This document shows, piece after piece, positions 1-4,274 of a DNA stretch of 4,274 bases; the stretch's first letter is position 1; the number at the start of each line of letters is the position of its first letter. Source of the stretch: a virus (lineage: Duplodnaviria > Heunggongvirae > Uroviricota > Caudoviricetes). Position numbers and translations under genes: made by a program. The notes beneath the pieces are model-generated. The model did not search any database. It saw only the letters and a program-made list of their open reading frames with translations, and was not told the origin of the DNA. Location of the stretch: positions 1 through 4,274 of the IMG/VR virus record IMGVR_UViG_2617270974_000007. One strand, given 5' to 3'.

Positions 1-1386
1 GGGGTCGATGGGTGACTCACTGACCGGGCTGATTTTGTTCGCCGCTTTGGCCTCCTCGAGGATGTAGCGATAATCCACCTCCGCACCATCGGTAACGGTC
101 AGAACGCCCATTTCCACCCATTTCTGAAAGCGTTCGGCTGTCCGTCGATCTTCATTTTTCTCGACGCTGTACACCGTGTCATACGGTACCCAGAAACGCG
201 GGGCCACACTGTAGTAATGCGTTTTACCGTCAATCTCGCGGGTATAAAGTCGCGCCATGCTGTTCATATCCAGTTTACGCGCCAGGTCAAAGGCCAGAAT
301 GCACGGCTGCCCCTCGAACTGCTCAAGGGTCAGTGATTTATCCTCGCAGCTCTGCCAGCTCACCAGGTTGAAATACGCCGAACGCGCCGACACCCAGATA
401 TTGAGGTGTTTTGTTTTAAAGACGTTTGCCAGACGGGCGTTATTTTTCGCACGCTGCTGCTGACTTAACAAAAATTCGCGATAAACCGACACGCCAATAT
501 TTGGATTGGCTTTTTCCAGCACCTGCGGGTCGGTCCAGTCGTCACCTTCATCAACGGTATAGATGATCCCGAACAGTTCATCGTTAGGCACCGAGCCATT
601 GAGCATCTCGATGACTTCCCGCCGCTTGTCGTAGCACGGCCCCTCAATGTTGTACCCGGCGGTGGTGATGGCCCACATCAGTGGCTGACGTCGCGCCCCC
701 ATCCCGGTAAGCATCGTGGTATAAAGCGCATCGGTGGCGTGCTCGTGATATTCATCCACCACGGCGCAGTGGGGTGATGAACCATCACCGGGGTTACCGA
801 TCAGCGGTTCAAACCGCGCGCCATCCTCCGGACGGTTCATGTTTGAGGCGTTAACCTCAATCCCGAACGCTTCCGTCAGCATGGGTGTGCGTTTACACAT
901 CAGTCGCGCCGGGCGAAAGACTTCCCACGCCTGTTTCTCTGTCGTGGCACCGGAATACACTTCCGCGCCAAACTCGTTATCACAGGCAAAACAATACAGG
1001 GCGACACCGGCAGAGATTGCCGATTTGCCGTTCTTACGGGGGATTTCGGTATACACCTCCCGGAAGCGGCGCAGCCGGGTACCTTTATTGACCCAGCCAA
1101 ACGCACAGCAGATCACAAAGAGCTGCCACGGCTCCAGCGTGATGGGCATCCGTTTGAATGCCCACTCACCCTTGGTATGCGGCAACAGCTGAATAAATTT
1201 GGCGGCCCGTTCAGCCAGGTCCTTGTCGAAGCGGTACCGAAACGACTTACTTTTTTCCGCCATCAGGTCATCAAGATGGCGCTGGCAGGCCTGAATCACA
1301 AACTGGCAGGCCACAATCTTTCCGCGCACGACATCCCGGGCATACTGATTGGCAGCATTTACGTTGGGGTAAGATTTCCGGCTCAT
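1..1386 (-). CDS. terL: Phage terminase large subunit, N-terminal 462 codons; the C-terminal end lies beyond the window start
   Basis: Minus-strand frame is open from ATG at 1386..1384 to base 1, with no stop, which is why it is not in the ORF track. Translation starts [41 protein letters not shown]. It contains a deviant Walker A motif EIPRKNGKS (about 1021..1047) and a Walker B-like hhhhDE motif [10 protein letters not shown], as in terminase ATPase domains. The ATG overlaps the upstream gene's stop as ATGA. Plus-strand ORFs in this span are antisense shadows. Confidence 0.9.
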
Positions 1387-1877
1387 GATTCGATGATTTT
1401 CAGAAACGGGTTAGTGGCTTTCTTCTGTCCCGCCAGGCCAATCAGACGCTGGCGGCTGCTGGGGTCGAGTCCGAGCATTGCCCCCGTGCTGCTCATCTCG
1501 GACTCCTGTTCTTTTTTGGCGGTCAGCTCAGGATTTTTGACCATACCGCCCATTGCACCGGTGATGGTGTTGCCCTGTCTGGCAATATTTTTCACGGCAC
1601 GTCGCCAGAACTCGTAGGCCACGCACCACCGCTCAAGCACCGCGAGGTCAGTCACGCACAGCAGGCCCTGACCGCAGAGTTCTTTAGTTGTCAGTTGCCA
1701 CATGATCGTAGCGAGAGGGAGATCTTCTTCAGCGAACCACTCCGGTGGCTCAACACCTTTGATGGGCGTAAAAACAGGTTCATCTTTATTCAGGGCTCGC
1801 TTGCCGGGGTTTCCGGCCAGCGCCTTGCGCGCCGTTGGCTTGGGGCGACGCCCGGAACGCCCCGCCGTTCCAGCCAT
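1383..1877 (-). CDS. terS: Phage terminase small subunit, P27 family
   Basis: Complete minus-strand ORF. Preferred start is ATG at 1877..1875, 8 nt after an AGGAG ribosome-binding site (1890..1886); the track's GTG at 1886 sits directly against that site. Product starts [34 protein letters not shown], with the GNPGKR motif I recognise from P27-type small terminases. Stop TGA at 1385..1383 overlaps the terL start. Confidence 0.85.
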
Positions 1878-1885
1878 ATGCGGCA

Positions 1886-1890
1886 CTCCT
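1886..1890 (-). promoter_or_regulatory. Shine-Dalgarno sequence AGGAG for terS
   Basis: Minus strand reads AGGAG-TGCCGCAT-ATG, giving an 8-nt spacer to the ATG at 1877. Confidence 0.5.
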
Positions 1891-2002
1891 GGTTAAATTT
1901 CATTTTTCGCGGGTATAAAAAAACGATGGGGCGGGCAGTCCGGAAGACGTCAGGTCACAGGGATTTGACCCGCCCCTCCCCTCTGGCAGTGGGAACTGGT
2001 TC
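1891..2002. other. HNH-terS intergenic region; candidate cos packaging site with a GC-rich inverted repeat
   Basis: Noncoding gap between the HNH stop (2005..2003) and the terS ribosome-binding site. It holds an 8-bp inverted repeat GGGGCGGG (1928..1935) / CCCGCCCC (1969..1976) around a roughly 33-bp core with small palindromes TCCGGA (1939..1944) and GACGTC (1946..1951). On the minus strand it is followed by ATCGTTTTTTTAT. In HK97-like phages cos lies between the HNH gene and the small terminase gene, so the placement here is by position only. Confidence 0.35.
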
Positions 2003-2353
2003 TTACTTCAGCCGTTCACGGGCCGTCTTCGCCTTATGACACGGCCAGCACAGGCTCTGCAGATTACTGTCGGCATCAGAGCCGCCATGCGCTTTAGGGA
2101 TGATGTGATCAACGGTTTTCGCTTCACGCACCACACCGGCACGCAGACATAACTGACATAAACCTTTGTCACGTTTCAGCACACGCGCGCGGATAACGTC
2201 CCACTTCGAACCGTAGCCGCGCTGATGACGGGATTGTCCAGGTTTGTATTGCTTCCAGCCTTCGCTTTTGTGGCTTTCGCAATAACCTGACGGGTCTGTG
2301 GTTATAGAGCGGCAGCCGCGAACACGGCAGGCCTTTGGGATTCGTGGTGGCAT
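2003..2353 (-). CDS. HNH homing-type endonuclease, packaging-associated
   Basis: Complete 116-aa minus-strand ORF. It has an N-terminal Cys-rich segment (CRVRGC...C..H), an HNH core DHIIPKAHGGSDADSNLQSLCWPCH and a second zinc-binding Cys pair. Its position immediately upstream of terS/terL is characteristic of cos-type packaging modules. Confidence 0.85.
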   Translation of the reverse strand: MPPRIPKACRVRGCRSITTDPSGYCESHKSEGWKQYKPGQSRHQRGYGSKWDVIRARVLKRDKGLCQLCLRAGVVREAKTVDHIIPKAHGGSDADSNLQSLCWPCHKAKTARERLK

Positions 2354-2563
2354 GGGTGTTCCAAAATAAATAAACGCTAGCGAATTCTAGTAGCTTGAAT
2401 TGAGTGTGATGGCCAGTACTGAACTTGAATCCGATTCGGTGTCAGCTTGGTTTTAGGCGATTACGCACAATTTGTTTTCCCTCATCAGACCAGGTTTTTA
2501 ACCCATCATTATATATATACCCATCACCAAACTACGGCTTCCAGTAGGTTACTGTGTTTAGCA

Positions 2564-2593
2564 TGAGTATTTTGTGGTATAAGAAAATACTCA
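2564..2593 (+). promoter_or_regulatory. Perfect 10-bp inverted repeat TGAGTATTTT-(10 bp)-AAAATACTCA upstream of the small plus-strand ORF; candidate operator or 5' UTR hairpin
   Basis: Arms at 2564..2573 and 2584..2593 are exact reverse complements. The spacer GTGGTATAAG contains a -10-like TATAAG (2578..2583), and a weak -35-like TGTTTA (2555..2560) lies 17 bp upstream. The repeat ends 19 nt before the ATG at 2613. The promoter assignment is by eye only. Confidence 0.35.
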
Positions 2594-2612
2594 ATTCTTG
2601 GGAGAAGAAAAC

Positions 2613-2894
2613 ATGCCAAAAATTCAATTTGATGCAAAAAGTGGTGAAATGAAGGTTGAGGAAGAAATTTCCAAGATCACCATTGATGATAAAGGCTTAG
2701 TTAAAGCTGAAGAGTCTGTAGTTAATGGAAATACCGTTAAGTACTTTGAGTATGAAAATGGTAGCCATATCACTATTACCCAAAAAAACGGATCCTCTGA
2801 GATTTCATCTCATAATATCCAGACAACAATAAGCGCTGACCCTGAAAAGCCTGGTTTTGTGACTATGACTTACAGAATGGGGTCAGGTAGCTAA
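2613..2894 (+). CDS. Hypothetical small protein (93 aa) in an AT-rich moron-like cassette; function unknown
   Basis: ORF with ATG at 2613, 8 nt after a GGAG ribosome-binding site (2601..2604); the track's TTG at 2598 overlaps that site and is unlikely. Product is MPKIQFDAKSGEMKVEEEISKITIDDKGLVKAEESVVNGNTVKYFEYENGSHITITQKNGSSEISSHNIQTTISADPEKPGFVTMTYRMGSGS. It is hydrophilic, mildly acidic, with no signal peptide or transmembrane segment and no motif I recognise. GC is about one third (20 of the first 60 nt), against clearly GC-rich neighbouring phage genes. It is on the opposite strand to the phage genes and is followed by a terminator. Confidence 0.6.
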   Translation: MPKIQFDAKSGEMKVEEEISKITIDDKGLVKAEESVVNGNTVKYFEYENGSHITITQKNGSSEISSHNIQTTISADPEKPGFVTMTYRMGSGS

Positions 2895-2921
2895 CTTTCA
2901 TTTCAACAAGAGCGGAAAATC

Positions 2922-2957
2922 AAAGCGGCTCATATTGAGCTGCTTTTCATTATTTTC
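2922..2957 (+). terminator. Rho-independent terminator, possibly bidirectional
   Basis: Stem GCGGCTC (2925..2931) pairs with GAGCTGC (2937..2943), with one G-U pair and a 5-nt loop ATATT, then TTTTCATTATTTT. It starts 30 nt after the ORF stop. On the minus strand the same hairpin is followed by TTTGATTTTCC, so it could also stop transcripts coming from the lysis side. Confidence 0.6.
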
Positions 2958-3164
2958 TGCATCCACACTTTCGCAATGGCCGCGATCATGCCCTTGAGAC
3001 CATGTGTCAGGGGTATCTCGTGAATCCCTCATAACTAACCGGAAGCTGACTGGCTATCAGCCTAGAGCACCGGTGCGCTTCTTCCCGTTAACCCTCACCA
3101 GTGCGCTCTCAGCTTTTTACCTGAAACTGGCTACCAGCAACTTTGAGTATTCGGGGCAGCGTCA

Positions 3165-3434
3165 TTACTGCTGCATTGACACTACTTGCTGCGGTCTTTC
3201 CGCTTTACAGCTTAATGGCCAGCTCCTCTCTGCCTCAATTTTACGAATATCAGCTTTATCACTATTACAGGCAGCCAGAGCCGACAACAGACTCACATTC
3301 AAATCCAAGCTTCCACCGTAGGTCAATGGATCAGGAATAACCGGTTGCGGGGTTTCAGCGGTCAGGTTCGCCGGTAGTGGTATCACCGGAACTGGCACGT
3401 AAACTGTCCGCGTACCGGCGCAACCGGTCAGCAG
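3165..3434 (-). pseudogene. Rz1-like outer-membrane spanin lipoprotein, N-terminally truncated by the IS insertion
   Basis: Minus-strand frame is open from the IS junction to TAA at 3167..3165. It reads LLTGCAGTRTVYVPVPVIPLPANLTAETPQPVIPDPLTYGGS..., i.e. a lipobox LTGC followed by a proline-rich stretch, the hallmark of Rz1-type o-spanins. No signal-peptide start is left on this side of the IS. The track shows only the GTG-initiated 77-aa part (3165..3398). Confidence 0.4.
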
Positions 3435-3435
3435 C
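3355..3435 (-). pseudogene. Possible C-terminal remnant of an Rz-like inner-membrane spanin, overlapping the Rz1-like frame
   Basis: A second minus-strand frame is open from the IS junction to TGA at 3357..3355, giving AADRLRRYADSLRASSGDTTTGEPDR. An open frame ending inside the start of an Rz1-like frame fits the overlapped Rz/Rz1 gene arrangement. A 26-aa fragment is weak evidence on its own. Confidence 0.25.
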
Positions 3436-3436
3436 G

Positions 3437-4274
<838 letters not shown>

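Follow-up and report, generated by a model that had tools for sequence, protein, structure and literature searches.

The non-coding gap between the HNH endonuclease gene and the small terminase gene terS in the window, by which we mean the whole 4,274-nt stretch of DNA that was analysed, is in all likelihood the cos site of a temperate phage of the SfV/SfI/P27 type integrated in E. coli, a cos of the HK97 style that depends on an HNH protein. The cos element itself is already known, having been mapped in SfI and annotated in phiP27, and is ordinary and widespread. An earlier note on this DNA had placed a candidate cos between HNH and terS, in a packaging module like that of HK97, and this placement is borne out by a sequence one base away from the cos region of SfV, by the presence of the SfI cohesive-end decamer and by alignment with the annotated phiP27 cos-site. 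The packaging site of the prophage can now be placed to the base, with the predicted overhang at 1928-1937. Such a position helps to define prophage genome ends and to predict the elements that are packaged or hijacked by related helper phages, and it is useful for the design of cosmid-like delivery vectors. About one complete E. coli genome in five carries this unannotated 125-bp element (gap found at a coverage of at least 80% in 1118 of 5426, ~21%, mostly with at least 95% identity), and among the E. coli records listed the gap is without an annotated feature.

Prophage and packaging genes

The window is an E. coli prophage with the genes of interest on the minus strand. Over positions 1-3436 it shares 100% identity with a prophage of E. 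coli strain 300033, the match ending exactly at 3436, and according to its RefSeq annotation this twin is complete for head, tail, lysis, regulation and replication genes. Its genes for tail, HK97-type protease and capsid, portal, lysis, antiterminator, replication and repressor are those of a lambdoid/HK97-like phage. The ORF list, RefSeq and Pfam agree on the order HNH, gap, terS and terL, all on the minus strand. The HNH gene (2003-2353, 116 aa, Pfam HNH E = 2.8e-16) is the last before cos and encodes a protein with an N-terminal zinc ribbon and an HNH domain, terS (1383-1877, 164 aa) encodes a small terminase of the P27 family (Terminase_4, Pfam E = 2.3e-21), and terL (1-1386), cut by the window edge, matches Pfam TerL_ATPase and TerL_nuclease. 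RefSeq annotates HNH, terS and terL alike in the 300033 prophage and shows no feature between HNH and terS.

The gap was first described as 112 bp long, a figure that needs correcting. With the HNH stop codon at 2003-2005 and the terS ATG at 1877-1875 (RefSeq, identical prophage) the non-coding interval on the minus strand that holds cos, given also by the ORF list, is 125 bp (1878-2002), and the start at 1891 given before omits the terS ribosome-binding site AGGAG (1886-1890) together with its spacer.

The proteins point to an HK97-like terminase whose small subunit is not detectably related to that of HK97. The HNH protein of the window shares 38% identity with HK97 gp74 (E = 2e-10) and 34% with N.phiGamma, the nickase of phage Gamma (E = 3e-16), and full-length TerL, taken from the identical prophage, is 26% identical to HK97 gp2 across 522 aligned positions (E = 7e-30). 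No similarity was detectable between TerS of the window and HK97 gp1, and HK97 gp1 matched no Pfam family.

Two further features lie upstream of these genes. An AT-rich stretch (2354-2894, GC 0.37-0.39 against ~0.55 on either side) separates the lysis cassette from HNH and carries on the opposite strand an ORF of 93 aa (2613-2894), annotated as hypothetical and with no Pfam match above the cut-off. This stretch looks like an acquired moron-type insert, since in SfV Rz/Rz1 directly abut HNH with no such stretch in between. Further upstream an ISEc31-like element of the IS3 family (3437-4274, 99.4% identical to annotated copies), with its orfB containing an rve domain at 3445-4191 on the minus strand, is inserted in the Rz1-like gene lysC. 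This gene is intact in the 300033 prophage, where it would cover window positions 3165-3536, and as the identity to 300033 ends at 3436 and the insertion element starts at 3437, the spanin gene is truncated in the host of the window.

An intact cos could stand idle in this host if the prophage were defective, which we consider unlikely, though less so than the terminator and dyad readings discussed below. The interruption of lysC by ISEc31 at 3437 lies only 1.4 kb upstream and the window covers only 4.3 kb of the prophage, the rest of which may carry further lesions. With a lysis gene interrupted, particle release may be abnormal. DNA packaging is not, however, stopped by the loss of a spanin. 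HNH, terS, the part of terL inside the window and the cos region show no damage and are almost identical to their counterparts in viable phages, and a related helper phage can likewise act on a cos in cis.

Predicted cohesive end and conserved blocks

Comparison of the window from HNH to terS (1380-2360) with five E. coli and Salmonella phage records gave 93.6-95.5% identity over the full length, and the portions of this region that lie at the ends of the records of SfV, SfI, SfII and SfIV, which are serotype-converting phages of Shigella flexneri, are 97-99% identical to the window. From block A, described below, to the terS ATG the sole difference from SfV is at 1961, a position that is variable in the family. 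The cos of SfI, SfV, SfII and SfIV is thus essentially the same sequence, with the same decamer TGCCCGCCCC and the same order of HNH, cos, terS and terL. The window differs from these phages in having an E. coli host and in carrying the AT-rich insert and the insertion element upstream of HNH.

The ends of SfI have been determined by Sun et al., who compared run-off sequencing from virion ends with the prophage and obtained a 10-nt gap, 5'-TGCCCGCCCC-3' (PMC3636060). This decamer matches the minus strand of the window exactly at 1937-1928, where it consists of the terS-proximal arm of the inverted repeat discussed below plus two bases. A gap rather than an overlap between the run-off reads indicates 3' overhangs; the 3' polarity is our own deduction from this gap and is not given in PMC3636060. 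The deposited records agree with this position. The phiP27 (Stx2e phage) GenBank entry has a misc_feature 'cos-site', CGCCCGCCCC, that aligns with block B of the window. In the linear records of SfI, Burkholderia phi644-2 and Edwardsiella EPP-1 the first base is homologous to 1927 and the right end is formed by the decamer equivalent to the overhang, and the terminus of the HK97 record is also at the junction homologous to 1928/1927. Cleavage at the window copy would be expected from its near-identity to these relatives, and 10-nt 3' overhangs would be expected there by analogy with SfI, HK97 and the record ends of phi644-2 and EPP-1.

The SfV (NC_003444) and SfIV (NC_022749) records are cut 7 nt upstream of the SfI overhang, at 1944/1945, between the two palindromes. 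These deposited ends are probably not true cohesive ends and were given no weight, because the SfV cos is termed 'postulated' in the SfI paper (PMC3636060) and the SfIV record was linearised by analogy.

The wider family was examined using 43 loci gathered via the TerS protein with one genome per species, to which phage records were added. An alignment anchored on one motif contained 47 sequences, 43 of them distinct, from Enterobacterales, Gilliamella, Burkholderia and Cupriavidus, and ran with zero gaps over ~95 nt. Absence of conservation among related phages had been set beforehand as a result that would speak against cos; instead three blocks are kept at invariant spacing across the 43 distinct sequences in this ungapped alignment. 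It is the sequence blocks and their spacing that are conserved and not the dyad.

Block A, on the minus strand at 1958-1981 (GGGGAGGGGCGGGTCAAATCCCTG), is the G-rich/TCAAATC block on the last-packaged side of cos, with the family consensus ggGGagGGG.gGgtcAAATC.CTg, and it includes the upstream repeat arm (1969-1976). It is followed on the same strand by a spacer of 16 nt (1942-1957) with almost no information and a constant length, in which lie GACGTC and the first bases of TCCGGA. Block B (1928-1941, minus strand) is GGAC followed by the 10-nt cohesive end (1937-1928), and its family consensus reads GgAC then YGCCcgC. Block C (1893-1921, minus strand), TTTTTATACCCGCGAAAAATGAAATTTAA, covers +7 to +35 from the top-strand nick and takes in most of the T-run at 1917-1923; its family consensus is TTTTTATaCCCGCGAAAAATGAAATTTAA. 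No other stretch of the alignment is conserved as well as block C, which is near-invariant even in phages with a TerS only 49-53% identical (phiP27, phi644-2). It keeps a fixed distance to the nick, whereas the interval between it and the terS ATG differs in length by ~50-60 nt in loci of Xenorhabdus, Photorhabdus and Morganella. In phiP27, where TerS is of the same family (49% identity), the three blocks are laid out with identical spacing and the same perfect 8-bp repeat is present; it differs from the window in a first overhang base of C rather than T, in its spacer and in a block C variant ending in CGCGAAATTAAAAATTT.

The site bound by HK97 TerS runs from +15 to +29, counted downstream from the cut (PMC11331095). 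Given this shared placement, its near-invariance and its fixed distance to the nick, block C is probably the binding site of the P27-family small terminase, in the manner of lambda cosB. Block A is placed like lambda cosQ and may be a docking or termination signal for TerL/HNH. The assignment of block C to TerS and of block A to TerL/HNH is suggested by their positions and by how they co-vary with the protein families.

From these elements a packaging scheme can be proposed. P27-family TerS would bind block C, just inside the left genome end, on concatemeric phage DNA, and TerL, helped by the HNH protein encoded immediately upstream, would make two nicks 10 nt apart. The top-strand nick (minus strand of the window) is predicted after ...CCCGCCCC, between 1928 and 1927, and the nick in the other strand between 1937 and 1938 (5'-GGGGCGGGCA^GTCC-3' on the plus strand); two such nicks would give 10-nt 3' overhangs consisting of the decamer and its complement. 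Packaging would then proceed from 1927 towards terS and terL and stop at the next cos, a direction that would make the G-rich/TCAAATC block the last conserved element to enter the head. The pairing of proteins with blocks and of strands with nucleases is inferred in this way, and this very prophage may still package DNA.

The cos of lambda follows the same logic, its nicking site having on one side a small-terminase site just inside the left end and on the other an upstream element that is packaged last. It differs in its 12-nt 5' overhangs, in needing no HNH protein, in its unrelated small terminase gpNu1 and in having no known sequence similarity.

Terminator and dyad readings of the gap

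The structures that had drawn attention to the gap are present in the sequence. The GC-only inverted repeat of 8 bp is formed by GGGGCGGG (1928-1935) and CCCGCCCC (1969-1976), which are 100% complementary and 33 nt apart, and between the arms lie the two 6-bp palindromes TCCGGA (1939-1944) and GACGTC (1946-1951). On the coding minus strand the downstream arm is followed 4 nt later by a run of seven T (1923-1917). The repeat by itself is within chance, as 229 of 2000 dinucleotide-preserving shuffles of the gap (11%) contain a perfect inverted repeat of at least 8 bp, whereas the conservation of the region among relatives is far beyond chance.

The earlier note offered as a fallback that repeat and T-run form a terminator, and of this the T-run after the repeat stands while the Rho-independent terminator finds little support. 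Such a terminator would end lysis/HNH transcription ahead of the head genes, either instead of cos or alongside it. On the mRNA-sense strand GGGGCGGG...CCCGCCCC can pair ahead of the seven U, and a compact hairpin of -9.8 to -18.1 kcal/mol ending 0-2 nt before the T-run is found in 8 of 40 distinct relatives, mostly from Xenorhabdus. The stem in the window however encloses 33 nt, the local fold right before the T-run reaches only -3.4 kcal/mol and the RNA fold of the whole gap is unremarkable (z = -0.78). Among the relatives 32 of the 40 have no terminator-like hairpin, and their consensus fold has an energy of -1.7 kcal/mol with a covariation term near zero. A terminator/promoter consensus scan of 1700-2600 gave no match, nor did an Rfam search of 1700-2700 at E <= 1. 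The gap thus does not hold the compact, conserved and GC-rich hairpin with a short loop and an abutting U-run by which an intrinsic terminator is recognised. In lambdoid phages, moreover, the late-operon transcript has to cross cos in order to take in terS and terL. The T-run belongs to a block that is conserved in sequence and not in pairing and is better explained as part of block C, and we regard a terminator here as improbable.

In most of the Xenorhabdus prophage relatives the equivalent of the overhang lies in a hairpin loop; the hairpin is compact, borders directly on the T-run and has the look of a canonical intrinsic terminator. Six of these hairpins, homologous to window 1917-1950, reach -9.9 to -18.1 kcal/mol, and the Xenorhabdus relatives have an additional 50-60 nt between block C and the terS start.

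Still less probable is that the dyad symmetry, meaning the 8-bp repeat with its palindromes, is the working element, either as a symmetric site where a dimeric nuclease would bind or nick, or as a cruciform. The cosN of lambda does have partial two-fold symmetry, the SfV/SfI/P27 subgroup has the repeat in perfect form and many relatives can pair some G-rich with some C-rich stretch, although in differing registers. Of 41 distinct relatives, however, only 6 pair the arms completely (8 of 8) at the homologous positions and 27 pair them there at no more than 3-5, and there are no convincing compensatory changes in the arms among these 41 sequences. The palindromic core had been likened to nicking sites, yet the mapped overhang lies on one repeat arm, the terS-proximal one (1928-1937), and not in the core between the arms. 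HK97 and phi644-2 have their ends at the same place and lack the inverted repeat. The sequence around the two nicks, GGAC/TGCCCGCCCC/ATCG with slashes at the nicks, is without local two-fold symmetry, and the family does not conserve a two-fold symmetry centred on the nicks of the kind expected of a lambda cosN-type symmetric nicking site. Neither palindrome keeps the importance given to it, GACGTC lying in the non-conserved spacer and TCCGGA being kept in the family only in its GGA, which is part of the conserved GGAC. The dyad reading is largely refuted by this comparison with relatives. A headful (pac) packaging site was rejected in view of the HK97-like terminase module with its HNH partner and of the conclusion of the SfI authors, drawn from virion ends, that packaging is by cos and not headful (PMC3636060).

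Two halves of cos and a possible HNH nick site

The cos of HK97 has 10-nt 3' overhangs and its cleavage is stimulated by the HNH protein gp74 (PMC9410871, PMC11331095), and compared with the window its TerL and HNH are homologous and its TerS is not detectably related. When the joined HK97 ends were scored against the family profile, in the register given by the terminus of the HK97 record, the upstream half agreed with the profile in 17 of 21 highly conserved columns (+29.9 bits, the next best register scoring -20.6) and the downstream half did not match (-57.9 bits, 9 of 28 conserved columns). Block A, the GAC/CG boundary (the slash marking the upstream edge of the overhang) and the genome end are in the exact register of the window, and the nick-to-terS ATG distance is 50 vs 51 nt in the window/HK97 comparison. 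HK97 differs in the absence of the inverted repeat, in a downstream half that cannot be aligned and in a distance from the HNH gene to the genome end of 319 nt against 75 nt in the window. This half-match suggests that the upstream half of cos goes together with TerL and HNH, and the downstream one with TerS. Homology of block C to the HK97 TerS site, both of which have ACCCG beside an A/T tract, is not claimed as there is no in-register alignment.

A similar division is seen in the cos of Bacillus phage Gamma/Wbeta, whose HNH is the nickase homolog compared above. The Gamma record has CGCCGCCCC at both ends with GTAC before it, and GGGGCGGGTC is found exactly 39 nt upstream of the AC/CG overhang boundary, the same distance as in the window. 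Scored against the family profile, block A of Gamma matches at 14 of 20 conserved columns (+7.8 bits against -16.9, which singles out this register). The Gamma cos differs from the window in an overhang of 9 rather than 10 nt and in an unrelated downstream half. The upstream module of block A, fixed spacer and AC/YG occurs in one register in phages of E. coli, Burkholderia and Bacillus with homologous TerL and HNH, and the downstream module changes with the small-terminase family.

The upstream edge of the overhang is itself strongly constrained. Directly upstream of the overhang AC is found in 40 of 40 distinct family sequences, and the next base is a pyrimidine in 38 of the 40 (GACCGC in 16, GACTGC in 13, TACTGC in 7 and TACCGC and GACGGC in 2 each). 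Read on the bottom strand, the AC/YG boundary is 5'-CR^GT-3'. Xu and Gupta found that zinc-ribbon HNH proteins encoded beside terminase genes are strand-specific nickases; in vitro N.phiGamma nicks CG^GT (AC^CG), its catalytic domain nicks ACCG, ACCC, ACTG as well as ATCG, and N.phi105 nicks YG^GTY (PMC3592412). They drew no connection from this specificity to cos (PMC3592412). The conserved AC/YG edge matches the published nick specificity of these terminase-linked HNH nickases, and the HNH protein of the window has the same architecture. A tentative reading, to which we give somewhat less than an even chance, is that cos is bimodular, with HNH making the upstream bottom-strand cut at AC/YG and TerL the top-strand cut 9-10 nt away. 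If true, the match would give a concrete explanation, open to test, of the dependence of these terminases on an HNH partner, and would be of modest wider interest. The division of labour between HNH and TerL is still treated as an open suggestion in recent papers (including PMC11331095), and a division by strand may already have been published.

This reading does not extend cleanly to all phages of this kind. In phi105 the 7-nt cos given in the annotation (GCGCTCC) starts 1 nt further downstream than the AC^CR nick reported for its own HNH, and the spacing from AAATC to GAC is 1 nt shorter. Pseudomonas phage D3 has the GGGGCGGGTCAAAAC block with GGAC 3 nt closer and then ACCG, and is 1-3 nt off register; its record carries no cos annotation. 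A caveat to the assignment of the bottom-strand nick to HNH and the top-strand nick to TerL is that the overhang of the Wbeta group has been reported as 5' by PhageTerm (PMC8878798).

A G-rich element with a TCAAATC-like sequence, ~39 nt upstream of AC/CG, recurs at the right genome ends of HNH-encoding cos phages. It spans Gram-negative and Gram-positive hosts and is exact in HK97 and Gamma.
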